Positions 15,084 to 39,146 are shown, counted from the first letter of the stretch. The stretch: 64,000 nucleotides of DNA from an uncultured Candidatus Saccharimonadales bacterium (GCA_964467655.1 CAYXSN010000004.1:19906-83905); one strand, 5' to 3'. The notes: generated by a model from the letters alone, not told the origin. A program made the numbers and translations.

Positions 15084-15893
15084 TCAAGAGGCTTGCTCTT
15101 GGTAGAAGAGTTGGCGGTCTTTGCGGTAGATACGCGCATAGACCCATGGCGGATAGTGACGGCAGATCTGTCGGCGGGCCGACAGCCTGTTCTGGGCAAC
15201 CGACGTGTAATAGGTGTGCAGTTCACGCCGAACCCAGTTTGGTCGATACCCTAAACGTTCGAAAATCTGATTTTCGGTCAACCAGCCATTTGCGGATGGC
15301 ACCTCGGGTTTGTGCCCCAGAGACTTGAAGTCGGGCACGTAATAGTGATCGGTGATCTTGTTGGTACCCGAAGCCCGAAGCCGTCGAGACTGGAGATTGT
15401 GCTCGTTGATGTGGCGGCGGATCTTGTATTTTGACCAGCCGGTCAATTGGCAGATCTCGCCTTCGGTGAGCCAGTCGATCTCGGCGAATGCTGGTAGATA
15501 CGCCTTGAGAGCTTGGTATGATTCGGGTGAGATAGCGGCCACGGGGCGACCATTGCGGCCGCGACGCTGCTCCACAGGGCCAAATTCAGGGTGGAGCTTG
15601 AGGTGCCGGTAGAACGTGGTCTCGATGATGCCGCAGTCGAGGCAGGCTTGGTACACGCTCACCCATCGCCTCAACCGGGGATACTGGCGCAAATTGGCAG
15701 TGTCGGCCTTGATTTGTTCGTAACATTCTTGCCTGTAGAACCTGGGCCGTTGTCCACCGCCAGTGCCGGCTAAGATGTAGTCTTTGGCATATGGACTGCG
15801 CCTGATTCTGGTCCGCACGAAGTCTCTGGGAAGTCCGAGGGACCGAGCCATACGCGCGGCACTCCAGATATAGGGGGTAGGTGCATTGCTCAT
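15084..15893 (-). CDS. DNA-binding protein with four tandem HTH-like repeats (excisionase/MerR-type HTH motif W-L-T-E-x-E-I-x-x-L-G-x6-RR)
   Basis: 269 aa. The four repeat segments were aligned by eye (YIWSAARMARSLGLPRDFVRTRI / YQACLDCGIIETTFYRHLKL / DWLTEGEICQLTGWSKYKIRRHI / GWLTENQIFERLGYRPNWVRREL). It is flanked by R3 direct repeats. Confidence 0.5.
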   Translation of the reverse strand: MSNAPTPYIWSAARMARSLGLPRDFVRTRIRRSPYAKDYILAGTGGGQRPRFYRQECYEQIKADTANLRQYPRLRRWVSVYQACLDCGIIETTFYRHLKLHPEFGPVEQRRGRNGRPVAAISPESYQALKAYLPAFAEIDWLTEGEICQLTGWSKYKIRRHINEHNLQSRRLRASGTNKITDHYYVPDFKSLGHKPEVPSANGWLTENQIFERLGYRPNWVRRELHTYYTSVAQNRLSARRQICRHYPPWVYARIYRKDRQLFYQEQAS

Positions 15894-16068
15894 GGTTAAC
15901 CTCTGTCGGGTAGAGTTCTGGCAACTGCCCCACTTGTACCTGATTTGAGTTGTTTGTGCAAGATTGGCGTACTGAGATGGCTATTTTTGTTTACAAAATG
16001 TTATTTATGTTGTATAATCTAGCCACTGTACTTTGATTCCGCTCCCTTGCCAACCGAGAGAGGCAATT

Positions 16069-16842
16069 ATGGATCTGCTACTTCGTAGTCTGCTGACGGC
16101 AGCAGTCCTGACAGCTGTGATGGCCACGCTCAGCGTATTAGTGCTGCATGCGTGTATGCACTACCGCACGTCGCCTATTGCCCGGACGACAATCAAGAGC
16201 ATTTTTCAGGACTGGCTGGTTTTTGTGCCATGCTGGGGCGTCGCATTGGGATTGCGCTCCGTCGCCCATTTTAACATCATTGTATGTGCTTGGTGGGGCG
16301 TGTTGGCGTTCATCATCGAGATACACCTGCTGGAGAAGTACATCAACAGCAGGTGGGCGACGACGTCGAGTATTCGTACCCCGACGCCCGACGAGCTCGC
16401 AGGTCTCGCGGAGCAACCGGATGAGGCCTGGCAGCAGATCCTGAACGATGCCCTCCTGTATCTACAGAGCGTTCAGCCAGCTGGGCTCAGGGCGGTTGTG
16501 CAGGCTCGAGCCAGGCTCAAGAAGTCATCAACCCGGGCTGAGCTGAGCGGCCTGCATGATGACAGCCTGCCAGTCAGATTCTTGAACTGGTGTCAGGACC
16601 TGCTCAATGCTGTCTTCGAGGATGAATTCGCAGACCGGTTCGACCCGAATCTGTTGTCGGTGGCGAGTATCTATGCGCCCCAAATACTGAACGACGCATA
16701 TGGCGACAAGTACGACAACGATCGGCGCATTGTTCGATCGTTTGCCCAGGCGCATGGCCTGGAGGCGATCGCTCATGCATTTTACACCATTTGGTATGCC
16801 CACATTGGCAGACCGCGCTACATCTCCGGCCCTCACGAGTGA
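16069..16842 (+). CDS. membrane-anchored hypothetical protein
   Basis: ATG 16069 with a gagagagg RBS. TM helices, then a soluble domain. Its 3' end runs into R3 copy 2. Confidence 0.5.
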   Translation: MDLLLRSLLTAAVLTAVMATLSVLVLHACMHYRTSPIARTTIKSIFQDWLVFVPCWGVALGLRSVAHFNIIVCAWWGVLAFIIEIHLLEKYINSRWATTSSIRTPTPDELAGLAEQPDEAWQQILNDALLYLQSVQPAGLRAVVQARARLKKSSTRAELSGLHDDSLPVRFLNWCQDLLNAVFEDEFADRFDPNLLSVASIYAPQILNDAYGDKYDNDRRIVRSFAQAHGLEAIAHAFYTIWYAHIGRPRYISGPHE

Positions 16843-24198: not shown

Positions 24199-25431
24199 TT
24201 GTTCTTTGGCATGGTTTCCTGTGTGATTATCAATCCTCTGGAGGCGGTCGTGCACCAAGCCGGTACCCACCGCCCTCTGTGGGCGATTCGCATCATGCTC
24301 GTGTTCGCTGATCTGCGACTGACAGGCTTCATCGAAGTTACCTATTTGCTGAAGCTTGGCTTCAAACCGAGCCAGATTGGCCTGATTGCGGCTTTACCTT
24401 TCGCTGCGCACTTGCTGGCTAATATTCCGGCAGGCTGGTGGAGCGACCGTTTCCAGCGGCATCGGCGCATCGTTATTACGACTGGGCTCGCTTGCATGAC
24501 GATGGCCCTGGCCGGCTTCGGCTGGCTGCCTGGTGCGGTATTTTGGCCGGCGGCCATTCTGACAGTCCTTCGCGGCGTCGGCTACGCCCTCTACTACAGC
24601 ACAAATGACGCGTTTACCCTGCTGCATTACGGTGCGCGACAGGACTCGGCGGCAGAGGCTCAACGTGAGCGTTCACGCTCGTGGGGGTATACCATGACGA
24701 TCCAGTGCGTAGGCGTGATGGGTATCCTCTTGGTGCTCGCATTGGCGCCCCAGACGGCCTTGCGCATGTTCTATTTCGTCCAGGCGGCCGCCCTGATGAT
24801 TGCCACATTGGCATCGCTGCGATTGCCCAGACCCGTCATGTTGGCACGACGCCGCGACCAGAGTGTGCGGCTCATGCTGCGCAGTCTAGGTGATGGCTGG
24901 TGGTATATTGGGCACTCGATAGCGACCATGGCCTTTACCAATAGCATGGCTACTATTACCCAATTGCATTTGTCGTTGCTGGGCCGGACACCACATGATC
25001 TGCTGCTCTTTTCGGTCGGGTTCTACTCCGTGGCAGCCTTGTGCGCTTTCTTTGTGCACCCGCTTGAGCGCACACTTGGCGCGGCTGGTGCCGTCATGCT
25101 GGCGGCATGGCTGTGCGCGATAACCGTCGCTTGGTTCGGATTGGCTAGTCCGTCGGTCATCCAATACGGTACTTTCCTTTTTGGCCTGCTGTTTGGAGTG
25201 CGCAACGGGATCGATAAAACCCGGATGATGCAGTTGAGTCAATGGCCGGCGCTGTTGATGTCAATTCAAGTAGCTGCCTCAATGGGCCTGACCAGCGTGC
25301 TGATCGCCGTGAGCGGCCGGATTACAGAAGCCTTTGGCATTCAATGGGTCTTGCTACTCGTGACGCTTGTGCTTGTTCTGCCAGCCGTTTTATGCGGCTG
25401 GCACGCCCGGCATACTTCGAGAGGATGGTAA
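24199..25431 (+). CDS. MFS transporter
   Basis: About 12 TM helices. MFS loop motif GWWSDRFQRHRR. The start is uncertain (ATG 24199 or GTG 24250 after a ggagg RBS). Confidence 0.7.
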   Translation: MFFGMVSCVIINPLEAVVHQAGTHRPLWAIRIMLVFADLRLTGFIEVTYLLKLGFKPSQIGLIAALPFAAHLLANIPAGWWSDRFQRHRRIVITTGLACMTMALAGFGWLPGAVFWPAAILTVLRGVGYALYYSTNDAFTLLHYGARQDSAAEAQRERSRSWGYTMTIQCVGVMGILLVLALAPQTALRMFYFVQAAALMIATLASLRLPRPVMLARRRDQSVRLMLRSLGDGWWYIGHSIATMAFTNSMATITQLHLSLLGRTPHDLLLFSVGFYSVAALCAFFVHPLERTLGAAGAVMLAAWLCAITVAWFGLASPSVIQYGTFLFGLLFGVRNGIDKTRMMQLSQWPALLMSIQVAASMGLTSVLIAVSGRITEAFGIQWVLLLVTLVLVLPAVLCGWHARHTSRGW

Positions 25432-25922
25432 CGATGATGTTTCTTCCAACGATCGTTCAAAACCCGCTACACGCAGGCGCCCAGCTAGATGTCACCACAC
25501 TGAACCAGCGCGAGTGGGATCTGGTGGCGGCCCTGACCGGCGCTGCCCAAACGACCCAGCGCCACCCACTACTGGTAGCGCCCTACCTTCGGGTAGAGAT
25601 GTATCAGGCGGCACTCAGGTCTTTGTCACTTGACGACGAGGGCACAATGGAAGTGCTTGGTGAACTGGCCGACCTGATCAGGCTCATGAAGCAGTTGCCT
25701 CAAGCCGATGACGCCCGGGCGTTGACCCATTGGTTGGTGGCCCAAGAACTGTGGCCGGTTACTACTGAGCTGCGGCCAGTGGATTATCCGCTCGTCTTGG
25801 CCATGGCAGCCTATTGGGCGGCCGACCAGTTGAGGATCTCGGTCACTTTGGCGCAGGCGCTGACTACTTGTTCACCGGCAGCACGGCCTGGCAACCATCT
25901 ACTGACCGCAATCGCTGTTTGA
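25425..25922 (+). CDS. hypothetical protein
   Basis: ATG 25425 with a gagagga RBS. It overlaps the MFS stop by 7 nt. 165 aa. Confidence 0.5.
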   Translation: MVTMMFLPTIVQNPLHAGAQLDVTTLNQREWDLVAALTGAAQTTQRHPLLVAPYLRVEMYQAALRSLSLDDEGTMEVLGELADLIRLMKQLPQADDARALTHWLVAQELWPVTTELRPVDYPLVLAMAAYWAADQLRISVTLAQALTTCSPAARPGNHLLTAIAV

Positions 25923-25949
25923 GATTCGCGAAACGAAGGGAACGTTATC

Positions 25950-26309
25950 ATGACAACGACGTCTGGTGGTTTGATGGCAACTGATACGGAACAGTATTTT
26001 CGAGATGGAGAACGGCACCTCGCCGGTTCCAGCAACTTGCTGGGCTTTGGCCACTTCTGCCTAACGGCGCTCATACGGGTCGAGTTTTATGCTCAGCATG
26101 TCGTCCATTCTGAGCTGACAGCCTGCCTGGAGGCCCTGCAGCAGCTTGCTGCAGGCGATCATGCAACAGCAGTAAAGAAACTCGTGAATACTCAGTCGTC
26201 ATTCATCACGATGACTGAGGCTGCCGCCCGGATTGACGCTGGCGAAATCAGTATGGCTGAAGCTATGATCGCGTTTCACGCCGCCCGCATCTTTGCCGGT
26301 GTCGTCTGA
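25950..26309 (+). CDS. hypothetical protein
   Basis: 119 aa. RBS gaagggaacg. Followed by hairpin ccccgtgga...tccacgggg (26330..26370). Confidence 0.5.
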   Translation: MTTTSGGLMATDTEQYFRDGERHLAGSSNLLGFGHFCLTALIRVEFYAQHVVHSELTACLEALQQLAAGDHATAVKKLVNTQSSFITMTEAAARIDAGEISMAEAMIAFHAARIFAGVV

Positions 26310-26505
26310 CACGCTCTGGCTTCCGTCGAAGCTCTCCGCCCCGTGGATTCTACCTCAAATGGGTAGCGTCCACGGGGCTTCTCTATTGCTCAAAGTGACG
26401 CAATATGGTATGTTAGGCGGGTCCGCCTGGTCCCATACTTTGTATGTGATCTCTCGGCTCGGAAGCATCAGAAAACAGGTTTTCGTCTGCTTCACTCACC
26501 TTCAA

Positions 26506-26580
26506 GGTCCCATCGTCTAGCGGTTAGGACAACGGATTTTCATTCCGTCAACCGGGGTTCGACTCCCCGTGGGACTACCA
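26506..26580 (+). tRNA. tRNA-Glu(TTC): tRNA-Glu (anticodon TTC)
   Basis: 75-nt cloverleaf read directly. Acceptor stem GGTCCCA/TGGGACT, anticodon loop TTTTCAT with TTC, T-arm GGGGTTCGACTCCCC, 3' CCA encoded. It begins with GTCCCATCGTCTAGCGGTTAGGAC, typical of tRNA-Glu. Confidence 0.9.
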
Positions 26581-26640
26581 TTGCACTTATGCTTGAGATT
26601 AAGCTCGCATATCTTATAATTAAGTTATCTGAGCTTTGGT

Positions 26641-26678
26641 AGGCGCACAAAAAGACCCCGAAAGGGGGCCTTTTTGTT
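26641..26678. terminator. bidirectional intrinsic terminator aaaaagaccccgaaagggggcctttttgtt
   Basis: A GC hairpin flanked by an A-run and a T-run, downstream of the tRNA. An identical copy is at 29771..29812. Confidence 0.8.
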
Positions 26679-26818
26679 ATTTATCCATCAGCCGCCTACC
26701 CACCTGATGGCCAGAAGCCGGAACTCCGAGCTTGACATATTGGTAGGCGTCTTACCCATCAACACTCCGGCTCCACCCTTAATTATATCTTATTTACCGT
26801 ACAAATACCAAACAAATA

Positions 26819-27157
26819 CTACTCTTTTTGTCTGCGTTCCTCAAACCATTGTTGCGGCCGGTTGAATTGCCAGGGGTCGCGGACGTTACACTTTTGAACT
26901 TCTAACTTTTCCCAAACTTTTCCGACGAGGTAGGGCTCTTTATCTAGCCACGTATGCAGCTCTTTCTCCGACGGGAAGTCCATGAGCAGCATCGACCCGA
27001 TCATTTGATTATTGGTATCCCATAAGGCGGCGCCGTACCACATATTGCCAGATTGACGAAGCTCCTCGCCCATTTCGATGTGAGCAGGCCGGGCGGCTAG
27101 GCGACGAGCCGGAGCTTCGAGATCGGTACCGTCGCGACCGATGATGAGATATTGCAT
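26819..27157 (-). CDS. YciI-like (Dabb-type) small protein
   Basis: 112 aa. MQYLIIGRDGTD...PYLVGKVWEKLEV matches the YciI-like family pattern. Confidence 0.55.
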   Translation of the reverse strand: MQYLIIGRDGTDLEAPARRLAARPAHIEMGEELRQSGNMWYGAALWDTNNQMIGSMLLMDFPSEKELHTWLDKEPYLVGKVWEKLEVQKCNVRDPWQFNRPQQWFEERRQKE

Positions 27158-27180
27158 GCGATTTATCCGATTAGTGGCTC

Positions 27181-27244
27181 GATTATAACTTGAGGCGCCA
27201 CCATCTGACGACCTCAGCGGCCACTTCGTTCCAAATCGAAGGCA
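27181..27244 (-). promoter_or_regulatory. sigma70-like promoter module P1 (minus strand: TCGTCA-N18-TATAAT), 5' of the YciI-like gene
   Basis: The plus strand shows attata at 27182..27187 and tgacga at 27205..27210. A 65-nt near-duplicate lies at 29636..29702. Confidence 0.6.
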
Positions 27245-27358
27245 GTAAGCCTACAAGGAATTATTTGACTTTATCAAGCCCCAATCATATACGCCCCAAA
27301 TCTGTTTTCGAACGAGTAACCCGCCGCAGCATATTGGCAACGGCGGGTTTGGTTTTGG

Positions 27359-28699
27359 CTAGCGGATTTGCTGACTGAGCAGCTCGGGCCATTCCCGGGG
27401 AATGAATGGTTTGTTCGACCCGGAGCTGGCGATTTCTCGCACCGCTTGGTCAAGCTTGACCGATCCACCCAGAGCTTCTTGCTCGCCAATAACAATGGCG
27501 TACGGCACGAGGTCTTCGCGGGCTTGCCTTACCTTTTTACCAACACTGTCGTTACGGTCGTCAATCTCGAGACGCACTGGCTGGCCGGCCAATTTGGCGC
27601 CGAGCTGCCGACACAGATCAACGTACTTGTCACTAACTGGAACGAGCCTGATATGGACGGGATATAGCCAAAGCGGTAGACCATCTGGGAATCGATCGAG
27701 CGCTGCGTACAGGTAACGTTCGATACCACCCGGAATGGCCGAGTGGATGATCACGGGATGACGACTATCGCCCTGCTCATCCACGTACTGGATACCCAAA
27801 CGTGGCGCGTTGCCAACATCAATCTGGATACACGCAATTTCACGCGACTGGCCAAGGGCGTCCATAATCTTGTAATCGACATTGATGATCCAGTAGCGAT
27901 CGGCGCCGTCGTTGATGATACCAGCCAGCACGTCGCGGCCAAGGCTAGCGGCCACCTTTGCGATTTCATCCCGGTATTGTTCCCAGTATTCGGGTGACGA
28001 TACCTCGATACAAACTTCGTAGTCACGGTTCAGTTCTCGACCGCTGGCCAGGATTTGTTCCTGTAGTTTAGGAAACCACTTAAAAGCCTGGGCAACGTCG
28101 CGGAAATACGGGTGAATGTCTGGCATATAAAATCGGCGCTGGCGATACAGCAACATGCATTCGCCGCTTTGCTCAGCGCGGTAGCAGTCGGACAGTGAAA
28201 AGTGCGCAAACGGCAGGTTCTTATAGTTTAGACCATGCTGCTTCGCCAGATTGAACTGCGGGTAGCTCGCGTCGTAGCTCATAACCAGCTGGTTGTTGCC
28301 CGATTTGAACTGATACAGCCGGTCGCCATACAAATGGGCGTAGGCCGCCACGACTGGATGGTCAAGGTTGAATAGGTTTGAACCATTTACTTCATACATG
28401 GGCAAGCCAACAGCGCTCACCAGCTGTCGAGCATAATCTTGAACGAGCCGGCGCATGAGGTTGGCTTTATAGTCGTACTGGACAATACCAATGTCGGCGT
28501 TGGGTTCCCACCCAAAGCCAAGCTTCTTAGCAATCGCTAGATAGGCGGGTTTGCCCTCGGAACCGCGATTGACACCAGCCCGCTGGGCTTCGCGCAGGAC
28601 GAATAATCTAAAACTATCTGAACCTGCGCCTGATTCCAAATAGGCCTCGGCCGAGTTGACCCGGCCATCAGGTCTAATTACGTAATATTGATCTTTCAT
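27359..28699 (-). CDS. class II aminoacyl-tRNA synthetase paralog. It is ThrRS-like (catalytic core plus anticodon-binding domain) and lacks the N-terminal TGS/editing domains
   Basis: 446 aa. Motif-2-like FSLSDCYRAEQSGECMLLYRQRRFYMPDIH. Motif-3-like PVIIHSAIPGGIERYLYAAL (compare ThrRS PVMIHRAILGSMERFIGIL). C-terminal class-IIa anticodon-binding pattern PYAIVIGEQE. Confidence 0.6.
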   Translation of the reverse strand: MKDQYYVIRPDGRVNSAEAYLESGAGSDSFRLFVLREAQRAGVNRGSEGKPAYLAIAKKLGFGWEPNADIGIVQYDYKANLMRRLVQDYARQLVSAVGLPMYEVNGSNLFNLDHPVVAAYAHLYGDRLYQFKSGNNQLVMSYDASYPQFNLAKQHGLNYKNLPFAHFSLSDCYRAEQSGECMLLYRQRRFYMPDIHPYFRDVAQAFKWFPKLQEQILASGRELNRDYEVCIEVSSPEYWEQYRDEIAKVAASLGRDVLAGIINDGADRYWIINVDYKIMDALGQSREIACIQIDVGNAPRLGIQYVDEQGDSRHPVIIHSAIPGGIERYLYAALDRFPDGLPLWLYPVHIRLVPVSDKYVDLCRQLGAKLAGQPVRLEIDDRNDSVGKKVRQAREDLVPYAIVIGEQEALGGSVKLDQAVREIASSGSNKPFIPREWPELLSQQIR

Positions 28700-28769
28700 T
28701 GCAATACTCCATTTAGAATTGGTTGACTCTAGGTGCCGCTCTAAATGAAGTTTTGGGCCGAGATACCAA

Positions 28770-28800
28770 AAACTCCCGCTGCCGGGAGATTTTTAAGCAA
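28770..28800 (-). promoter_or_regulatory. intrinsic terminator hairpin (ctcccggcagcgggag plus T-run) inside the 5' leader of the ThrRS-like gene. Candidate attenuator
   Basis: A predicted promoter TTGACC-N17-TATAAT (plus-strand ggtcaa 28902..28907, attata 28879..28884) lies upstream of this hairpin. The hairpin is therefore about 75 nt 5' of the ATG inside a roughly 170-nt leader. Confidence 0.45.
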
Positions 28801-29021
28801 TCGCAAACTACCGACAGGCTAGAACGTAGCTGTCGCTGTCTCGTTGATAACGATGTAGTTTGATTGAATCATGTTCTAATTATAACACGCTTGTGGTTGA
28901 TGGTCAATTTTTACCAGTTTCGGTTACTAGCTGGTAATACCCTCAGGCGGCTTTACCTGGAACGAGCGATACCAAACCGCCAGCCCATCTCTGATACGGT
29001 TCCAATTCGCGATATGGTAGT

Positions 29022-29041
29022 CTACCAATGCACTTATGCTT
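29022..29041. repeat. direct repeat of the tRNA-Glu 3' end and flank (ctaccaatgcacttatgctt), copy c
   Basis: Matches 26575..26594 (ctaccattgcacttatgctt) and 29708..29727 (ctaccaatacacttatgctt). Confidence 0.75.
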
Positions 29042-29053
29042 AAATGAGAAGCT

Positions 29054-29632
29054 TTAACCGGCTTCTTTTTTAGTGCCCAAATATTTAGCCACTACGACAA
29101 CGGCATTCATCAAGAAAACATAGGCCGGATAGACGAGTAGGATAAACGAGTAGGCCGGAACTGCCACCATGCTGAATAATCCTGCTATCCCCGCCAGCAC
29201 CCACTGTAGGTACACTTCAGTGTCGGGCTGCCGGTAGGCCTTGATTACGGTCGGCAAGGCACCAACTCCGTCAATCGCAACAGCAATGAGTGTAGAATAA
29301 TACGTATCTTGAGAGAATATCCAGTAAGTAAAGAGTAACGCTGCTACCCCGAGAATGATCTGATCAAACCTGGAGCTGCCACCTACTCCTTTGCGCATCG
29401 ATATAATAAAAACGAGCAGAACTAGAGCCGTAGTGCTGCCGAAGAAAAGTGACGACCACCCGCCCCCATTCATAACTTGGTTAACGAACGCGACTAACGT
29501 CAGGATTGACCAAATACCCCACGTAATGCGTTGGGGTTTTACTTTACCCTCGAATATGCCGCGGATGTAGGGGACGTAGCCAATAAAGTTAAGGATTAGG
29601 GCAGTGAAGCCGAAGAATAGTGCTTTGTCCAT
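29054..29632 (-). CDS. integral membrane protein (about 6 TM), hypothetical
   Basis: 192 aa and strongly hydrophobic. It has its own promoter module P2. Confidence 0.55.
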   Translation of the reverse strand: MDKALFFGFTALILNFIGYVPYIRGIFEGKVKPQRITWGIWSILTLVAFVNQVMNGGGWSSLFFGSTTALVLLVFIISMRKGVGGSSRFDQIILGVAALLFTYWIFSQDTYYSTLIAVAIDGVGALPTVIKAYRQPDTEVYLQWVLAGIAGLFSMVAVPAYSFILLVYPAYVFLMNAVVVVAKYLGTKKEAG

Positions 29633-29635
29633 GGG

Positions 29636-29702
29636 GTGATTATAGCCTTAGTCGCCACCATCTGACAACCTCAGTGGCCACTTCGTTCCCAAATGCAGGC
29701 TG
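29636..29702 (-). promoter_or_regulatory. promoter module P2 (minus strand: TTGTCA-N18-TATAAT), near-duplicate of P1
   Basis: Plus-strand attata at 29638..29643 and tgacaa at 29663..29668. The -10 lies 8 nt upstream of the ATG, so the transcript is nearly leaderless. Confidence 0.6.
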
Positions 29703-29707
29703 CAGTG

Positions 29708-29812
29708 CTACCAATACACTTATGCTTATTATAGGACATCGTAAATTCTAGAATAGAATTATCCGAGCTTTGGTAGGCGCACAAAAAGACCCCGAAAGGG
29801 GCCTTTTTGTTT
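29708..29812. repeat. duplicate of the tRNA-Glu 3' end plus downstream flank and terminator (copy b)
   Basis: ctaccaatacacttatgctt ... atccgagctttggtaggcgcacaaaaagaccccgaaaggggcctttttgtt, compared with 26575..26678. Confidence 0.8.
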
Positions 29813-29853
29813 GCTTTCCATTTTGAGACATTGCGATCTGTCTTTTGCCCTAT

Positions 29854-31330
29854 CTATGGATTGGGGTTGGGTATGGATGCATTTTTTGTGCTATCCCAGC
29901 ATTCCGGAAGGATTTCTTTTGTGAAGGCATACTTATTCACATCCGCGCAATTTGGTTCCTGCTGAAGCACCATCGCGAGCTGCCATTGTCCGTTTACTTT
30001 CGCGTAATGAGCGGCGGCCCCGGTTTGGCAGCCCTGGCCGACCGCAGCGAATTGGTCGCGAATAACTTTTGAGATGATGAACGTAGCGTCGGCCCCGGTA
30101 GCCGCGCATCCGGCATACACTTTGTCGTATTCGCCCTTGATATAGGTCTGGAAGTCGGCGGGCGCAGATGAAAGGCCCAAGATATGCTCGTACTTGTCTT
30201 CAGCCTGTGCGGCCGAAAGCGCGAAACCGCCCCGCATTGTAAGGGTACCCACGGGCGTCCCGATTTGACCATATTTTGCCTTTATGGCGCCCGTCTTTGA
30301 GTCTACGAAATCAATCTCGAATTCGTGCTGGTATATAAGTGTCCGGTCGTCAAACTGAGTAACATATTCATCTGAGCTGAATCTTGGTACCGGAATTGTA
30401 CTAGGCCTGGCGTTCTGGCCAATCTTGTCCCCAGGATATGAGAGTATATTCGCCTGGTTTGATGCCTGGTTGATGAAATAGAATGTGTTGCTCGACTGGC
30501 TGAAAGAGACGTAATCGGATGATTGTACCAAGCCGGGTGCGGAAAACTCGGATAGTGTTTTGACGTTACTACCGTCGGCGTTCATTATCATCGGGTGTTC
30601 CGAGACGCCATTGTTTTGGCCGGGTGTGTTTTGCGTGTACGCCCAATAAACAACACGCCCATCCGCAAGCTCGGCCGGGCGTTGATTTTCGTTTGTTTTG
30701 GTGAGCTGAGTGAGTGTATCTGTTGCTAGTGTATAGCGAAAGATTTGCCGGTCAGGTGATTGGTACACCGGCTGCGGCATTATGGTAAGCAGCACGCTTT
30801 TCCCGTCATGCGACCAGGCGTTGCCCCCGTCAGGCCATGAGGGTCCGTTCGCTGTAGCCCCGGTAGGCAGCTTAATCTCTTTTGTGACCTTAAGGTATTT
30901 ATTCAATATCCACAGCGAATTTTGCGTGTTGTCCTTACTCGCTACGGCAAGGAACTGACTGCCGTCTGGGCTTGGAATCATTGTTTTGATTACTTTGCCA
31001 TTGGTTGTTGGCAAGTCATACCGAACTCGGCTGCCTGCTTGATTGATACAGACGAGCTTTGAGAGCCGCACAAAGCAGTAATTTGGCGGGAATTGCTTGC
31101 TAGCCTTTGACGCCAGCTGGGAACTCACATCGGTCTGCTGTGGGCGCTGCTGAAGGTAGATAGCGTAGCCGGCAACCGCGACCATAACAAGCGCGAGAAT
31201 CGATGTTAGTACTAGAGTACCCCGCCTCGATCTATTTGGCTTAGGGCTTTCTTCTGGTGCAATATCGATAGCATCGTTGGCGGTGTTATCGACTTCTGGA
31301 ACCTGTGATGATTTGAGTTCTTGTTTCATT
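29854..31330 (-). CDS. membrane-anchored periplasmic/extracellular protein with a TolB-like beta-propeller domain, hypothetical
   Basis: ATG 31330 (MKQELKSS). One TM helix. WD40-like beta-propeller motifs (SPDGSQFLAVASKDN; WSHDGKSVLL). Visibly lower GC than the flanks. Confidence 0.5.
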
Positions 31331-31718: not shown

Positions 31719-31785
31719 CTTACTTTGTGCGAGCAAGTATACCCCGATTTCTCGGGAGTCTTTTGTCCACTTACCCGCCAGCTGC

Positions 31786-32340
31786 CTACCCAACTGATGG
31801 CCAATCTTTGGTTGGGGTCAGATTGAAATACGGCCCCCTGAGTTCAGGGTAGGCGTCCAGTAAGTTCATGATGTTACCCTGCATGGCGAGGGCTTGGTCG
31901 GCTATTGCCTGGGGGTTGTGGTGCCGGCCTTCATGCAAGATGGTGTCGCCGATCATTCTGCCGTGGGCGCAGATGTTGCGGCAGCGCACCCAGTCCTCAA
32001 ACTGCTTCCGGCTGCCCTTGGCCACCCGGGCTGGATCGACCCGCGACAGCACCTTAAAGAGGATGTCGATTTTGGTATTGAGCGAGACGAAACGGTTATC
32101 GAGTATGTCGAACATGAAGGCCAAATAGGAGTTTTGGTAGCCGCCGTCCGGACACCGGGTGTAGTACTCGGCGATATAGGCGTTGATGATGCCTTCGACC
32201 AGGGTGGCCTGGGTAATTACCCGGGCGATGGCGATGTGCGCTGCGACGAGTTGAGTGGTAAAGGGATCAGGTTCCAAGATGGGGCCGCTTCTTGAATACA
32301 GCGAACCAGAACCGTTTTGCGGGGGTTTTGGGATGCTCAT
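31786..32340 (-). CDS. HEPN-like protein (Rx4HG motif: RCRNICAHG)
   Basis: ATG 32340 (MSIPKPP) would overlap the 3' end of the upstream methyltransferase gene by 73 nt. A later start is possible. Low GC. Confidence 0.45.
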   Translation of the reverse strand: MSIPKPPQNGSGSLYSRSGPILEPDPFTTQLVAAHIAIARVITQATLVEGIINAYIAEYYTRCPDGGYQNSYLAFMFDILDNRFVSLNTKIDILFKVLSRVDPARVAKGSRKQFEDWVRCRNICAHGRMIGDTILHEGRHHNPQAIADQALAMQGNIMNLLDAYPELRGPYFNLTPTKDWPSVG

Positions 32341-33669: not shown

Positions 33670-35809
33670 GATTTCCTCCTTGCTTGATGGGCTTGGCTGC
33701 GGTAGCGGGTAAATCAAACCCAAAGATTGACCCTTTGCCTTCAGTGCTGCTAAAGATGAGGGTTCCTCCTTGATCTTCTACCACTCGCTTCGCTAAGTAA
33801 AGTCCCAATCCTGTACCATCTGGTCGGACACCTTGGGCGTTCTCGGCCCGAAAGAACTTGCTAAACAGCTTGGCCTGAGCGGTCCGAGGAACCCCAATGC
33901 CAGTGTCGTGCACTTCAAAGTGAACCGACTTGGGCGTACGGCTCAGCAGCACTCGCACTTCACCGCTGGGAGTGTAGAAGATGGCGTTATCAATAAAGTT
34001 CATGATCACTTGGCGGGTTTTGTTGTCATCGACATTGATGAGTGGCCATGGCTCGGCCGGCGGCTCGAAGATGAGTGAGAGTTTTTTGGTCTCGGCATGC
34101 GAGCGCAACTGGCGCACTTCATCGCCCACCATCTTGACGAAGTCGGTGGGAGTGGGCTGGATGATAAATCGTCCCGCCGATAGCCGCGAGACGTTGAGTA
34201 AGTCAGAAATGAGATTAACCATGCGCTGGCTGGCATCAAAACCGTAGCCAACGAATTGGCTCTGCATGGGCGAGAGCTTGCCGGCATCACCCTCCTGGAG
34301 CATCGACAAATACCCCTTGATGGTCGTCAACGGCGTGCGTAACTGGTGGGAGGCCATGGAGATGAATTCATCCTTTGCCTGGTCAAGTTCTTTGAGGTGA
34401 CGATTGGCCACCCGCAGGCGCTTGGTAGCGTGCTCTACCCGACCCTGCAGGGTGACGTTGAATTCCTTGATTTCAGCGAAAGCTTTGGCGTTTTGCAAGG
34501 CAACCGCTAGTTGACGACTCATGATTTCGAGAACTTTGATATCTTGGTCAGAATAGACGTCACCTGACAGCTTGTCGCCAATGAGTAAGTAACCGATAAA
34601 ATCTTCGCTGGTCCGCAACATCGTACTGACACGCAGGTCGTGATGCTCGAGGATTTCCTTGCGCTTGCCACCTTCCAATTCGTCGGCAATGATCATCGAC
34701 TGATTGAGCTGGATGAGTTCGGGTGCCACCATGAGCCGTTTGGGGAGCACGCCATAGTGTTCTACGCGGTAGACCCGGTCGTGATTGAACACGACGATCT
34801 GGGCATAAGCGATGTGCATTGACTCACACAACGTGGTGAGCGAGCGCTTGAGCAGCCGATCCAGGTCAATCTCGCTGACGAGAATCTTCGAGAACGCGTT
34901 GAGAACTTCTTGGGAGTCGTAATGCTGGCGATAAAAAACGCTGTTTGTTAGTCGTTCGAACACCCGACGGAGTGGCTGAAATGCAAATAATGAGATGACG
35001 GCCATTAGGCTGTATGGCCAGCTAGCATCGGCGGCTGATGTGCCCTCCTGAAACACATACCTTGAGCTGGCAATAAAAAGTACCCCAAAACTCAAAGCCA
35101 AAGTGCCCAACAGCATTACATACATCACCGTCCGGGCAATCACTGCCCGAATGTCAAAGAGCCGGGTTTTGATGACGGCATAGGCAATCGACACTAGATA
35201 AACGAGTGTAAATATCGGGCCAAGATAGACGTATTTATAGTTGCCAAATATGACCGGCAGTATCAGATTAAACAGTAGTCCCATTACAACCGCCACCGAC
35301 ATACCAAGCAGGATGAGTTGTATCTGGAGTTTCTGTATGCCCCTGAGCTTAAAAAGTGATCGGAAGAGCGACATCAAGCCGATACTGAACAGCACTGCTA
35401 ATACAATGCCAAATATGCGCACTCCTGATACGGTAATAATTTCACGGTTGTTTGTCACACCCGTTGCACACATGCCAGGAATAGCAGCGATGATAGAGAA
35501 TGCTATCCCGGCTACTACGATTATCTTGTCGGGCACGACTCGAATTCGGGAAAATGAAGCGTTAAACAGCGCAAAGAAAGTGGCTGTCAGCATGGCGCCC
35601 GTATAGCTGATTAATGCCGTGGCAAATGTGTACTCAATTGGTACAATCCGAAATAAGCCATTTGTAAATGTCCATGTAGCTACTCCAACGGTCAGGCCAA
35701 GGTAATAACGAAATGTGGTGCTTTTCGTATTTCTCAGAAAGATCGATAGGCCCAAAATAAGGTTGGAGGCCGCGGCGATGAATAATAATACACTCGGCAG
35801 GTCTACCAT
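33626..35809 (-). CDS. sensor histidine kinase (multi-TM N-terminal sensor, HisKA H-box, HATPase_c)
   Basis: 727 aa. About 8 N-terminal TM helices. H-box SHQLRTPLT. N/G boxes (NAIFYT, HDTGIGVP, GTGLGLYLAK). Confidence 0.85.
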   Translation of the reverse strand: MVDLPSVLLFIAAASNLILGLSIFLRNTKSTTFRYYLGLTVGVATWTFTNGLFRIVPIEYTFATALISYTGAMLTATFFALFNASFSRIRVVPDKIIVVAGIAFSIIAAIPGMCATGVTNNREIITVSGVRIFGIVLAVLFSIGLMSLFRSLFKLRGIQKLQIQLILLGMSVAVVMGLLFNLILPVIFGNYKYVYLGPIFTLVYLVSIAYAVIKTRLFDIRAVIARTVMYVMLLGTLALSFGVLFIASSRYVFQEGTSAADASWPYSLMAVISLFAFQPLRRVFERLTNSVFYRQHYDSQEVLNAFSKILVSEIDLDRLLKRSLTTLCESMHIAYAQIVVFNHDRVYRVEHYGVLPKRLMVAPELIQLNQSMIIADELEGGKRKEILEHHDLRVSTMLRTSEDFIGYLLIGDKLSGDVYSDQDIKVLEIMSRQLAVALQNAKAFAEIKEFNVTLQGRVEHATKRLRVANRHLKELDQAKDEFISMASHQLRTPLTTIKGYLSMLQEGDAGKLSPMQSQFVGYGFDASQRMVNLISDLLNVSRLSAGRFIIQPTPTDFVKMVGDEVRQLRSHAETKKLSLIFEPPAEPWPLINVDDNKTRQVIMNFIDNAIFYTPSGEVRVLLSRTPKSVHFEVHDTGIGVPRTAQAKLFSKFFRAENAQGVRPDGTGLGLYLAKRVVEDQGGTLIFSSTEGKGSIFGFDLPATAAKPIKQGGNHGRPTKSQSQRSQR

Positions 35810-35828
35810 ATGGTATATTGTATTATTC

Positions 35829-36521
35829 TTATGGTTTGATTAATAGCCGTTTTGTGCGGTTGAACTTGATATAACGCATTGGGGCCAAAAGACGAAGCCG
35901 GGCCCGAGCAGTTGGCAGATGGATCATTGCCAGATGTGTCGTTTTACCATCGGGCGTAGTGCCACGACCAATTTCCTTAACAGGCAATAATAGCTGGAAC
36001 CGAAGGCCTTTCAAGAGAATGGGTGTGGTCACGAAATACCATGTGGTAAGCATTGGCTGAGCCAGTTCGGAACGGCCATAGACGAGCCGATATAGATTCA
36101 CCAGGACGGTTTTGAGTCTGCGTTTGTCTTTGCCGATCCACTCCATATCAATAATTAACCTAGAGATATCGGCAGCATTGTGGCGCGGATAATCATGTCC
36201 GTCATGTAGTAGATTGCTAAAGTATTTGCGGCTCATGGTGCTCGACGGAGCATTATCTGGTGTAAGCCGACAGTAACCAACAAGGACCGATTCACTGAAC
36301 ACGCCAAAATGATATGAGTATGTATCAAACTCATCTGATTCTGTGCGAGTGATCGGATCACCACTAACCCAGTGCATTTTTTGCACACAAATCTTATAAC
36401 GAAAGTTATAAGCCGCAACCAGGTCCTGATATGAGCTTAATTCCCGATATACGAGCTGACCCTTGGTGAAACCAATAGTGTCTGCGGTGGCGTCTAGGGC
36501 GCCTAAGGGTACGCTTGGCAT
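35829..36521 (-). CDS. GNAT-like N-acyltransferase of the acyl-homoserine-lactone-synthase/OlsB superfamily (putative aminolipid N-acyltransferase)
   Basis: Start chosen at ATG 36521. Motif FRYKICVQKMHWV (compare R..VF....GW in LuxI/OlsB-type). Divergent to a PlsC-like gene. Confidence 0.5.
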   Translation of the reverse strand: MPSVPLGALDATADTIGFTKGQLVYRELSSYQDLVAAYNFRYKICVQKMHWVSGDPITRTESDEFDTYSYHFGVFSESVLVGYCRLTPDNAPSSTMSRKYFSNLLHDGHDYPRHNAADISRLIIDMEWIGKDKRRLKTVLVNLYRLVYGRSELAQPMLTTWYFVTTPILLKGLRFQLLLPVKEIGRGTTPDGKTTHLAMIHLPTARARLRLLAPMRYIKFNRTKRLLIKP

Positions 36522-36583
36522 TGACTGTATATTGACACCTGGACAATTATGTGTCAACATGTTCTTGGATTATTTTACCCTAT

Positions 36584-37249
36584 ATGCAAGCGCTCGACAC
36601 AGTCATTACGGAATCGCGCAGGAGCTGGCTAGACAACAAAAACTCGCAGCGCATCATTTTTGCGTGGCAACGAGTTATCTTTTGGACATTTTATACGCTT
36701 GGCCCCATTTGGCGGCGCAGCTTGGTGAATGAGCTGACCGAGGCTGATGTCGTGCATGGCACCCGTTATGTGGTGGCCGGTAATCATCAACGGGCCATTG
36801 ATCCGTTTTATATCTGTACTCAAATTCCCTACCGTATTTGGCGGCATATGGGTACGCTCAACTACTTTACGGCTAATAAATTTATGGACACACCGGTAGT
36901 CGGTAAAGCCTTGCTGCGTTTTGGCTGCTTTCCGGCCAAGGTTCATCACAAATACCCATTTGGACTCGACTATGCCCACCGGATGCTAGCTCGTGGTAAT
37001 ACCATCCTGATCTTTCCCGAGGGTCGGCGGACGCGTCCTGGCGAAACTCCTGCCCGTAAGGGCGTTCAAGTGCTGGCGCACGAGCCGAATGTCATGGTGA
37101 TCCCAGCACACATAGAATGGACGAAGCGCTGGTTTGGCTATACGTTTAAACTGGGTATTGGCAAGCCATTTGATGCGAGTAGTCTGTCGGCACAAGAAAT
37201 CCTGGATCGGGTATATGCGCAACCTGTTGAAGTTGTTGATCAGAACTGA
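36584..37249 (+). CDS. PlsC-family lysolipid acyltransferase (OlsA-like)
   Basis: HX4D motif NHQRAID and FPEGRRTRPGE (FPEGTR-like). Start ATG 36584; the listed ORF begins at 36551. Confidence 0.7.
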   Translation: MQALDTVITESRRSWLDNKNSQRIIFAWQRVIFWTFYTLGPIWRRSLVNELTEADVVHGTRYVVAGNHQRAIDPFYICTQIPYRIWRHMGTLNYFTANKFMDTPVVGKALLRFGCFPAKVHHKYPFGLDYAHRMLARGNTILIFPEGRRTRPGETPARKGVQVLAHEPNVMVIPAHIEWTKRWFGYTFKLGIGKPFDASSLSAQEILDRVYAQPVEVVDQN

Positions 37250-37307
37250 CGCTTTTTCTTGCCTTTTTCGGCAGCATCGGGTACACTTTCTTGACGGGTT
37301 ATCCTAA

Positions 37308-38534
37308 ATGTTGTACTTCAAGAATTCTGAACTCACCAAAACCTATAAAGTAGCACTCAATACCGTCCTTGGCTGGATTAAGGCGGCTCAAAACGGCAAG
37401 CTCGACCTCGGACTCGTTAAGGTCAACGAGCGCTATTATATTGCCAACACTGCCAAGAACGTCGCCGTCTTGGGCCAGCTCGTGGAAGAGCGCAAGAAAT
37501 ACCGCAACAGCCGGAATGCCCGCGTCACCACGCCGCTGCCTAAGTTTTATGAGCTTTTTACTCAAACTCAGCTGCTCGATATTATCTCGAGCCTCGATAT
37601 CCATCATGAGATCCCCTTCCAGTACAGCTATTTTGACGGCGGAGCTGATGTCTGGAACGATTACGCCAACCGTATGGTGAGTGATCCAGCGCCCAATCTG
37701 TTGACGCGTACTATCAAGCTATTAGAGCTGAATGGTACTTATCTTGATGAACTATTTGCCCCATACGAGAAAGTTAATCTCGTTGATCTGGGTCCTGGTA
37801 ATGGTTTGCCGGTGAAGGAACTGCTCGGCAAACTGCTCGAGCAGGGTATTTTGCATAAGTATATTGCCCTCGATATCAGTCCGACGATCCTTGAAAACAC
37901 TCGGGCCAACATTAAAACCTGGTTTGGTGATGACAGTTTCGTCGAGGGCCACGTCGTAGACTTAACCCAAGACAGGTTTGGTCATTTATTGGTAGACCCC
38001 CGTGTCGAAGAGGGCAAATTGATTAATTTGGTCGTATTTCTCGGTGGCACCATTTCGAACTTCCGTAATCCAGATGATGTATTGAATATTGTTCATCATA
38101 GCCTTGGCCGGAACGATATCTTTGCCTATTCGCGCAAGCTCGACACAGCCCAGAGTCGTCGCTTTTTTGACTTCAGTAGTAAGCCCGGCCATGCCGCACT
38201 GTCCGAGATTCACAGGATGATGCCGGAGCTCCTCAATATTGATCCTAATTGTTACGAAGTGGAAATGGGTTATGACGGCGTTAAGAATCAGCGGTACATC
38301 CAGATTCGCTTGAAGCAGGCGACGAGATTGGATTTCCACCTCGGTGGAAGTACTCGCTCAGTGAGTTTAGAGAAGGGTGACGCCCTCTTGATCTGGCGGG
38401 CACGGCAGATCAATTCGGTTCAGGTGTTGCAACAATTGATTTCGAACGGCTTTTATCCGCTGCACATTAGTCAGACCAGCGATAAAGAATATATCGTGAC
38501 AATCTCCCGCATCCAGACTGAAACCGACTCATAG
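37308..38534 (+). CDS. EgtD-like SAM-dependent N-methyltransferase (Methyltransf_33 family) with an approximately 100-aa N-terminal extension
   Basis: LVDLGPGNGLPVKELLGKLL...YIALDISPTILENT resembles EgtD (ELGSG..K...LL ... Y.P.D.S). Low GC. Confidence 0.5.
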   Translation: MLYFKNSELTKTYKVALNTVLGWIKAAQNGKLDLGLVKVNERYYIANTAKNVAVLGQLVEERKKYRNSRNARVTTPLPKFYELFTQTQLLDIISSLDIHHEIPFQYSYFDGGADVWNDYANRMVSDPAPNLLTRTIKLLELNGTYLDELFAPYEKVNLVDLGPGNGLPVKELLGKLLEQGILHKYIALDISPTILENTRANIKTWFGDDSFVEGHVVDLTQDRFGHLLVDPRVEEGKLINLVVFLGGTISNFRNPDDVLNIVHHSLGRNDIFAYSRKLDTAQSRRFFDFSSKPGHAALSEIHRMMPELLNIDPNCYEVEMGYDGVKNQRYIQIRLKQATRLDFHLGGSTRSVSLEKGDALLIWRARQINSVQVLQQLISNGFYPLHISQTSDKEYIVTISRIQTETDS

Positions 38535-38759
38535 CTACTTGCGCACCTTTACATATTGGCTTATGATGAATAAAGAAAGTTCAACATCTGACAGAAGTGT
38601 CACACCAATATAACATAGGAATTTTACCCATGGCGCTGTAATACTCACGATTTTCGGTAATTTGGAATCATTTTTTGTCGACGCGGCTGACACCAGTTTG
38701 GGCACCGCGTTTTTTGATGCCTCTTGCATCTGATGGGGACCCGGACGTACACTCATGCT

Positions 38760-39146
38760 ATGAGTAACGCTAAGATTAAGATTGCGATTATTGAAGACGA
38801 TGCTGCTATCGTTCAGATGTATCAGACTAAGTTTGAGAATGAAGGCTATGAAGTACAGACTGCCGGCGATGGCGTAGCCGGACTGCAGCTGCTGGCCGAT
38901 TTTTTGCCCGATGTCGTTTTGCTCGACCTGATGATGCCCAATATGAACGGCCTCGATATGTTGAGTAAGTTGCGCAATGCTCCGGGTGGCCGTGAAGTGC
39001 GAGTCATTGTGCTTACCAACATGGGCGACACTGAGACGGCAACGAAGGTGTATAAAATGGCGGCCGATGATTATATCGTCAAAGCCGAAATGACGCCGTC
39101 TGAAGTGCTGGGCCGTGTGAAGGAACTGTTGTCAAAGTCCCGGTAG
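38760..39146 (+). CDS. single-domain response regulator (CheY-like), paralog of the 33232..33669 gene
   Basis: ATG 38760 (MSNAKIKIAIIEDD). AT-rich promoter region upstream. Followed by hairpins at 39160..39218. Confidence 0.8.
   Translation: MSNAKIKIAIIEDDAAIVQMYQTKFENEGYEVQTAGDGVAGLQLLADFLPDVVLLDLMMPNMNGLDMLSKLRNAPGGREVRVIVLTNMGDTETATKVYKMAADDYIVKAEMTPSEVLGRVKELLSKSR

Follow-up and report, generated by a model that had tools for sequence, protein, structure and literature searches.

How does a bacterial locus come to be divided by repeated copies of the end of its own tRNA gene when no integrase gene stands among them? The question is raised by a 64-kb stretch of DNA (the window, always meant at its full length) from a bacterium of the Saccharimonadia, within the candidate phyla radiation (CPR, or Patescibacteria), in which the 3′ end of a tRNA-Glu(UUC) gene recurs among the genes that follow it. 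CPR bacteria have tiny genomes, and to our knowledge little is known of gene exchange among them. The original prediction took the locus for an integrase-less island delimited by repeats, and comparison with relatives bears this out: it is a variable array at the tRNA-Glu 3′ end, and related genomes differ at its joints. We favor the reading, to which we give a probability of roughly 55%, that the array was built by repeated recombination at the hexamer CTACCA, through a recombinase not encoded locally, with newer units entering beside the tRNA.

The comparison drew on about 20 related loci, many of them sitting on short contigs. Joints were analyzed at 11 tRNA-Glu loci and at 12 non-tRNA joints, together from 11 contigs and the window; the non-tRNA joints come from 9 sources (8 contigs and the window) and were aligned by the sequence on their left, which we call the head; the sequence on the right we call the trailer. 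Genome and metagenome scans demanded an exact match to one trailer type, A, which biases which joints turned up. The arrangement in the window is no assembly artefact, since it is present whole on an 85.9-kb ENA contig, Logan contig L002 covers the genes for the membrane protein, the threonyl-tRNA synthetase (ThrRS) and the YciI-family protein, and three more Logan contigs from other sequencing runs (L003-L005) hold partial, overlapping pieces consistent with it.

How the joints are built

The tRNA-Glu(UUC) gene is the sole tRNA that ARAGORN finds in the window, and variable DNA begins directly after it, at 26581. Its last 6 nucleotides (nt) and 14 nt of flank make up a 20-mer, CTACCAWTRCACTTATGCTT, found again at 29022-29041 and 29708-29727. 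The three copies are real: a search of the whole window for CTACCAATGCACTTATGCTT with up to three mismatches matched only 26575-26594, 29022-29041 and 29708-29727, all on the plus strand, and 100 dinucleotide-preserving shuffles gave an expectation of 0 against the 3 observed in 64 kb. The 20-mer is also tied to tRNA-Glu, as had been proposed, and we rejected a common dispersed motif, all three window copies being at the locus. Among 35 matches in a genome collection of 596 Gb, 31 were single chance matches in unrelated taxa (about 70 chance matches are estimated for 17 specified bases in 596 Gb), and four Saccharimonadia/Patescibacteria contigs carried single copies; a metagenome scan gave 9 matches, 4 of them relevant. 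We rejected a phage or plasmid source because the five 20-mer matches in IMG/VR all lie within unrelated coding sequence, and found no support for copies 2 and 3 being decayed whole tRNA genes, their alignment to five tRNA-Glu genes being significant only through the 20-mer.

The unit shared by the joints is shorter than the 20 nt first proposed. What recurs is CTACCA, which at 26575-26580 forms the last 6 nt of tRNA-Glu (tRNA positions 71-76); the 14-nt flank turns out to be one of two alternative trailers that follow tRNAs and heads alike. The 12 head junctions share a single alignment register, in which GTTCC(A), and CTACCA 17 nt further on, vary little or not at all; the head, GTTCCA-N17-CTACCA, is a small open reading frame (ORF) or the remnant of one. 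Similarity among these junctions ends at CTACCA, where the right sides divide into six of type A, four of type G and two others. Trailer A reads WTGCACTTATGCTT and trailer G reads (A)GGAATTATTT, with a terminator hairpin after each. Straight after the CTACCA of the 11 tRNA-Glu loci, which include UUC and CUC isoacceptors, stands either the A trailer (the window and, as in the window, L040, L046, L050, L053 and L068) or a G or G-like trailer (L065, L066, L011, L006 and L008). The left half, whether tRNA or head, is found with either trailer, A or G, on the right; the four possible pairings thus all exist, as recombination at or next to CTACCA would give.

In L006, L040, L054 and L065, the head is the 5′ start of a small ORF of about 29 codons, MWNTLWPS(L/I)V..S..LEELG, whose copies differ 46/42/93 times on codon positions 1/2/3; this third-position excess is modest evidence that the ORF is translated. 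Its copies lie at 1115-1198 in L006, 4578-4655, 5924-6007 and 7585-7650 (minus) in L040, 1527-1616 in L054 and 13676-13765 in L065. Apart from the L065 copy, which has no CTACCA, they begin 14 nt from that hexamer, the cargo genes behind them are unrelated and, in L054, the stop codon overlaps the start of the PLD gene. The window heads are degenerate copies of this ORF fused to a sigma-70 promoter. The likeness of the head to a tRNA T arm (GTTCCA versus GTTCGA) is suggestive only. Beyond ThrRS and a HigBA-like pair, L006 also has a true 19-nt fragment of the tRNA-Glu 3′ end, followed by an A trailer.

Read by its joints, the window holds the tRNA, a YciI unit (26581-27256), a ThrRS unit (27257-29027) and a membrane-protein unit (29028-29713), and past these a truncated copy of a terminator-bearing module that we call the T-module (29714-29825), a 491-aa gene and a remnant at 31725-31860; the array extends past 29812. 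The first of the two cassettes originally drawn (26581-29021) is in fact two units, split at a degenerate core, CTACAA, at 27251-27256. Two longer repeats also recur: D1, a 74-nt 'promoter module' (27181-27254 versus 29638-29711, 80% identical), and D2, a 70-nt terminator module (26605-26674 versus 29739-29808, 84% identical; 96% by BLAST over a 54-nt core, 26625-26678 versus 29759-29811). The features are as follows.

26506-26580, plus strand: tRNA-Glu(UUC), CCA encoded, intact (ARAGORN; Rfam tRNA, 62 bits)
26581-26594, plus strand: A-type trailer TTGCACTTATGCTT, with CTACCA forming copy 1 of the 20-mer
26595-26818, no strand assigned: T-module 1, with plus-strand promoter-like site, GAGCTT..GGTAGGCG, bidirectional terminator and minus-strand candidate small RNA (sRNA)
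26646-26811, minus strand: candidate sRNA of about 135 nt with its own promoter (covariation on six sequences)
26819-27157, minus strand: YciI-family gene, 112 aa, cargo of the tRNA-proximal unit (Pfam PF03795, E = 5.6e-10)
27160-27250, minus strand: D1a head, sigma-70-like promoter and degenerate small-ORF-head remnant (GTTCCA at 27229-27234; 12-head alignment)
27251-27256, plus strand: degenerate joint core CTACAA, the fourth joint (in register with CTACCA in 12 aligned head junctions)
27257-27358, no strand assigned: G-type trailer GGAATTATTTGACTTTATCAAGCC..., then ThrRS terminator at about 27320-27350 (homology to the post-tRNA-Glu sequence of L065)
27359-28699, minus strand: class II aminoacyl-tRNA synthetase, archaeal-type ThrRS core and anticodon-binding domain, 446 aa (Pfam tRNA-synt_2b, HGTP_anticodon)
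28700-28907, minus strand: ThrRS promoter and conserved leader of about 180 nt (invariant blocks, 5-6 genomes)
28975-29021, plus strand: diverged head (GGTTCCAATT-N14), directly left of copy 2 (head alignment)
29022-29067, plus strand: copy 2, with CTACCA, A trailer and simple bidirectional terminator at 29046-29067 (20-mer search, terminator scan)
29054-29632, minus strand: membrane protein, 192 aa, without Pfam or NCBIfam match
29633-29707, minus strand: D1b head, promoter TTGTCA-18-TATAAT (29668 to 29639) ending 6 nt ahead of the ATG (repeat and promoter scan)
29708-29825, plus strand: copy 3, with CTACCA, A trailer and truncated T-module, D2b (repeat search, BLAST; compared with L053)
31725-31860, plus strand: further partial T-module at the 3′ end of a 163-aa gene (BLAST match 31779-31803, sequence read directly)

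Cargo differences among related loci

For the YciI unit, a filled and an empty site can be compared. The closest ThrRS relative, L065 (82.7% nucleotide identity), runs tRNA-Glu(UUC), 357-aa gene, 121-aa gene, small ORF, ThrRS, PspC, PadR and membrane protein. After its tRNA comes AGATATTATTTGGCTTTTTTAAGCCTCAAT; the window has the homologous GGAATTATTTGACTTTATCAAGCCCCAAT behind D1a-CTACAA, and the 670-nt YciI unit sits exactly between the tRNA and this trailer. The homology of GGAATTATTTGACTTTATCAAGCCCCAAT to the post-tRNA sequence of L065 implies that the YciI unit was inserted between the tRNA end and an older trailer, an insertion bounded by a 6-nt direct repeat with one mismatch. The G-type trailer at 27257 is also homologous, over the trailer itself, to what comes straight after tRNA-Glu in L011 and L066, and we read 27257-27358 as a putative former tRNA-adjacent flank. 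Repeat-delimited presence or absence is clean for the YciI unit, in the window versus L065, and is not clean for the ThrRS unit, as judged from L067 and L068.

Other relatives carry differing cargo in one slot: YciI in the window, RidA in L053 (exactly in the YciI slot, between the same T-module and the same D1), and PLD, truncated YciI and CutA in L054, whose order is PLD, head, CTACCA, A trailer, T-module, 77-nt YciI 3′ fragment, second T-module and CutA. L046 matches the window in gene order to either side of the locus (polysaccharide-synthesis genes at one end, response regulator and histidine kinase at the other) and keeps the tRNA and T-module, with a glycoside hydrolase and a polysaccharide deacetylase replacing the YciI, ThrRS and membrane-protein genes. 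L067 and L068 run tRNA-Glu(UUC), A trailer, T-module, YciI, shortened head, membrane protein, head and degenerate 20-mer, without ThrRS. Behind the tRNA-Glu(CUC) of L040 stands a regular three-unit array of an AAA ATPase and two Fic genes, each unit preceded by the ~29-codon ORF, 14 nt and CTACCA. Cargo across genomes includes RidA, CutA, PLD, Fic, toxin-antitoxin and restriction-modification genes, and the architecture recurs in a clade of Saccharimonadia.

Homologs of the YciI, ThrRS and membrane proteins come mainly from Candidatus Saccharimonadia and Patescibacteria. ThrRS lies 110 nt from a convergent tRNA-Glu(CUC) in L006, two other genes separate it from tRNA-Glu in L011, and in L008 a restriction-modification gene separates the two, this gene being flanked by the tRNA on one side and a head-CTACCA-G joint on the other. 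The membrane-protein gene recurs 0.7-5.6 kb downstream of tRNA-Glu(UUC) in L065, L066 (after six other genes), L067 and L068. In three other genomes (L062-L064), YciI homologs at 78-85% identity belong to ordinary operons, RidA-YciI or ADH-YciI, that have neither a tRNA nor the modules, so the position of YciI here is derived, and we rejected YciI as a cassette wherever it is found. In L009, a more distant relative, ThrRS is convergent not with tRNA-Glu but with tRNA-His, 84 nt apart (9335-9500); we set aside ThrRS as a mobile unit also targeting tRNA-His, because the L009 post-CCA sequence AGTAATTATCT resembles the G trailer too weakly to use.

The 5′ side of tRNA-Glu is variable as well. In the window, three genes (MFS transporter, 162/226-aa ORF and 119-aa ORF) separate the polysaccharide-synthesis gene from the tRNA (24199-26309); L046 has none of them, and its tRNA is about 200 nt from the polysaccharide-synthesis gene. 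The upstream region is conserved across UUC and CUC isoacceptor loci, and the first 8 bases of tRNA-Glu recur in it as GGTCCCATACTTTGTATG, about 77 nt ahead of the gene (window 26428-26505), with counterparts in L006 (3885-4040, two tandem copies) and L046 (5060-5134). The repeat may act as a leader or a processing element, or be what remains of tRNA 5′ fragments.

Genes and RNA candidates of the units

All three array genes (YciI, class II aminoacyl-tRNA synthetase and membrane protein) are on the minus strand, and Pfam and NCBIfam searches of the locus ORFs and of all window ORFs of at least 150 aa gave no match to an integrase, another recombinase or a transposase; both points agree with the original prediction. 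A consensus scan placed sigma-70-like sites in both D1 copies, ahead of ThrRS and at two spots in the tRNA-proximal flank. The proposal of one promoter module per cassette holds in that D1 is present in both cassettes as then drawn; within the first of them, however, D1a (TCGTCA-18-TATAAT, 27211 to 27182) drives YciI, and ThrRS has its own promoter (TTGACC-17-TATAAT, 28907 to 28879).

The synthetase had been described as a ThrRS-like paralog. It matches NF003068 with E = 1.4e-113 over profile positions 153-568 of 613 and is without the N-terminal editing domain (profile positions 1-152), which is why its score of 380 bits falls below the cut-off of 484. More than 2,000 homologs exist, with Saccharimonadia at about 55-78% identity among the matches listed, and the promoter and leader are conserved nearly base for base in six Saccharimonadia genomes. 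Taken together with its archaeal-type match, this makes it probably the housekeeping archaeal-type ThrRS of the lineage, residing in arrays, rather than a paralog. Its leader contains an attenuator-like (intrinsic-terminator-like) hairpin at 28773-28788 and a helix sequestering the GGAG ribosome-binding site; it gave no T-box or other Rfam match and looks like an uncatalogued attenuator candidate.

The T-module accounts for the duplicated bidirectional terminator: the D2 repeat is real, and the terminator is the end of a larger, conserved, sRNA-like module. Conservation of the roughly 250 nt that follow the tRNA extends to L046, L053, L054 (two copies) and L068, with a mean column identity of about 76% for the first three relatives, L068 having joined in a second alignment. 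T-module 1 has a plus-strand promoter-like site at 26593-26620 and its bidirectional terminator at about 26650-26676. On the minus strand, the alignment is suggestive of a pseudoknotted sRNA of about 135 nt, convergent with the tRNA. The candidate would start from a conserved promoter directly past the cargo stop codon (TTGGTA-18-TATAAT, 26811 to 26782) and end at the shared terminator, folding into an 11-bp helix, H2 (26764-26774 with 26714-26724), a 7-bp hairpin, H1 (26685-26691 with 26704-26710), and an 8-bp pseudoknot between the hairpin loop and an internal loop (CGCCTACC at 26693-26700 with GGTAGGCG at 26742-26749). In six sequences, which represent only four or five lineages, 91% of cells are paired (33-56% in slid controls), 8 pairs are altered on both sides and the covariation score was reached by 0/500 shuffles. 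The loop pairing shows two independent cases of covariation, L068 (GACAGG/CCTGTC) and the second L054 copy, L054b (GATAGG/CCTATC). An Rfam search of 25000-31000 at E ≤ 1 returned nothing but the tRNA, and so no match for the sRNA.

A third copy of the pairing motif, just past the terminator, covaries as well. The GGTAG/CTACC motifs of the T-module might have been arm sites for a recombinase, akin to the tRNA end, but we rejected this: the three motif copies change in concert in L068 and L054b, while the tRNA end of L068 and the joint upstream of the L054 modules remain CTACCA, so the motifs pair with each other. The T-module of copy 3 (D2b) keeps the terminator and the first bases of H1 without the sRNA body, and the one at 31725-31860 keeps the terminator, an H1-like hairpin with GCCTACCC, and GGTAGGCG. 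At copy 2, the terminator overlaps the stop codon of the membrane-protein gene, and the diverged head type to its left, GGTTCCAATT, is also found in L008 (distal joint), L043 and L049.

Elsewhere in the window, two divergent 269-aa ORFs without family assignment lie at 15084-15893 (minus) and 16033-16842 (plus), one of them with a weak match (E = 1.2e-4) to the winged-helix domain HTH_29, which is known from some transposases. A Fic-family gene at 54911-56059 falls in a dip of GC content (0.43 versus about 0.57), with no head or trailer joint seen there; L040 has Fic genes as cassette cargo, and in L009 they flank ThrRS. Other low-GC stretches, at about 9000-12000 and 35000-39000, may be further acquired DNA.

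Assembly of the array and its place among known systems

In the reading that we favor, the array would consist of units joined at CTACCA, each made of a trailer with its terminator, one or a few genes, most of them encoded opposite to the tRNA, and a head; some A-trailer units would also bring the sRNA-like T-module. Conservative recombination at CTACCA or directly beside it would add and remove units, through a recombinase that is encoded elsewhere (or has been lost) and that would recognize, on the left, the head or the T-arm-like sequence of the tRNA and, on the right, the trailer. Newer units would enter beside the tRNA and push older trailers outward. The joints, their freely combined halves, the cargo differences and the one filled and empty pair are direct observations; the enzyme, the direction of events and any current activity we infer. 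Serial site-specific integration by a recombinase acting in trans, as first proposed, is likewise a supposition.

Several observations weigh against this reading. Same-species contigs from several samples have one fixed arrangement, with no polymorphism seen, and no recombinase was recognized in the window (ORFs of at least 150 aa) or in the sampled parts of about 12 related arrays. The shared core of 6 bp is short for a classical integrase attachment (att) site. Some junctions lie elsewhere: in L067 and L068 the membrane-protein gene is joined to YciI through a shortened head, and in L054 the truncated YciI is joined at a CACTT microhomology, in neither case at CTACCA. Since RidA and YciI are neighbors in ordinary operons, their apparent swap could be differential loss from a two-gene unit, and since the T-module resembles a functional sRNA gene natively linked to tRNA-Glu(UUC), its conservation needs no mobility.

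The locus might instead be a hotspot of homologous recombination without a site-specific enzyme, a reading that we regard as possible and less likely. Heads, trailers, terminators and the sRNA module would then be conserved functional intergenic elements; in naturally competent Saccharibacteria, imported DNA would replace the genes between modules in a RecA-dependent manner, and unequal crossing-over would duplicate or delete units. The modules are long enough to serve as homology arms (heads of about 75 nt, a T-module of 250 nt, repeats of about 130 nt between L040 units), the T-module and promoters look functional by themselves, a DprA gene lies near the L006 array, and the failure to find a recombinase and the rearrangements that end away from CTACCA fit such a route. 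However, the head, which is not homologous to the tRNA body, is joined to differing trailers exactly at CTACCA in 12 independent joints, and the first insertion of the YciI unit between tRNA and G trailer, with its 6-nt direct repeat, is left unexplained; homologous recombination explains the spread of an arrangement, not its origin. A decayed classical island, in which one or more integrase-bearing elements entered tRNA-Glu, lost their integrases and most genes and left att scars, would account for partial tRNA 3′ repeats beside a tRNA, its classical signature, including the 19-nt fragment kept in L006, and for the defence- or addiction-like cargo of relatives (restriction-modification, Fic, HigBA, PIN and PLD). 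We think it unlikely: Pfam recognized no integrase, integrase fragment or phage gene in any of about 12 sampled arrays, the units are 0.7-3 kb with mostly one to three genes, IMG/VR viral contigs gave no meaningful match to the 20-mer, and the same head stands in tandem ahead of every L040 unit, unlike what independent decayed elements would leave. That the segment downstream of the tRNA and a promoter were simply copied in place, the repeats marking no mobility, is very improbable. The D1 and D2 copies, just 80-84% identical, do look like old duplicates, but the same joints hold differing cargo at both tRNA-Glu isoacceptors in many genomes, the presence and absence differences of L046 and L065 contradict a local origin, and the first 23 nt of copy 2 match the native sequence downstream of tRNA-Glu in L040 and L050 exactly, whereas copy 2 and copy 1 of the window are alike only over the 20-mer, with one mismatch.

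Recombination at CTACCA invites comparison with tRNA-linked genomic islands and islets built by site-specific integrases, among them the tycheposon-fed islands of Prochlorococcus (bioRxiv 10.1101/2020.12.28.424599). The present locus likewise has an intact tRNA with insertion at its 3′ end as anchor, scattered direct repeats of the tRNA end at a distance (29022, 29708, the degenerate 27251 and the 19 nt of L006), in our reading successive insertions at one site that push older material outward, and material mostly without mobility genes. It differs in that we found no tyrosine or serine recombinase, excisionase or replication gene in the locus, among window ORFs of at least 150 aa or in the sampled related arrays, and no tycheposon hallmark genes in the window; most joints have no more than 6 nt in common with the tRNA, and every unit has the same conserved head and one of two trailers, with a cassette-like regularity.

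That regularity is closer to integrons and to clusters of attC sites lacking integron-integrases (CALINs), which also have tandem units of mostly one to three genes, mostly in one orientation, a conserved composite site between units (about 100-130 nt, split by the joint), one fixed entry point (attI there, the tRNA end here) and accessory or defence-like cargo. No IntI and no Phage_integrase match was found, however, among the locus ORFs and the window ORFs of at least 150 aa, and the junction alignment, read directly, has no RYYYAAC/GTTRRRY pair at the boundaries and thus no attC architecture. Unlike integron cassettes, the units carry their own promoters or a small leader ORF (D1a, D1b and ThrRS each have a sigma-70-like promoter), the entry point is a tRNA gene and the host is a CPR bacterium; we found no report in the literature of integrons in CPR bacteria, nor any description of such arrays in Saccharibacteria. 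The locus thus works like a tRNA-anchored island fed by successive insertions, with integron-like joints and gene orientation, and is a member of neither family.

Integrase-less modules moved in trans by a housekeeping recombinase are known from Xer-dependent systems, namely integrative mobile elements exploiting Xer recombination (IMEX elements) and the pdif modules of Acinetobacter plasmids. In the A trailer, TTATGCTTAAA matches the Escherichia coli XerD arm TTATGTTAAAT at 8/11 positions by eye, an arm that may not be the host's. We recognized no XerC arm, a palindromic 11-6-11 site is absent, the repeats are direct rather than alternating inverted pdif sites, and we identified no dif site or Xer gene in the window. 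An Xer-type mechanism in trans is a lead only. More tentatively still than recombination at CTACCA as such, and as a possibility that we would not back at even odds, the arrays could represent an undescribed integron-like cassette system in a Saccharimonadia clade, with the tRNA-Glu 3′ CCA end as fixed entry, a composite site of small-ORF head, CTACCA, trailer and terminator, a recombinase encoded elsewhere (possibly a housekeeping one), ThrRS inside the arrays and a pseudoknotted sRNA in some cassettes.

The locus gives two uncatalogued RNA candidates, the pseudoknotted sRNA beside tRNA-Glu and the conserved ThrRS leader with its attenuator, and the conserved joint of head, CTACCA and trailer is a searchable signature for such arrays and their recombinase. 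If our reading is right, defence, toxin-antitoxin and small metabolic genes would be shuffled in a tRNA-anchored array that has no local integrase, a testable route of gene flux in CPR epibionts. Together with integrons, there would then be two examples of cassette arrays that take in genes at a single fixed point.

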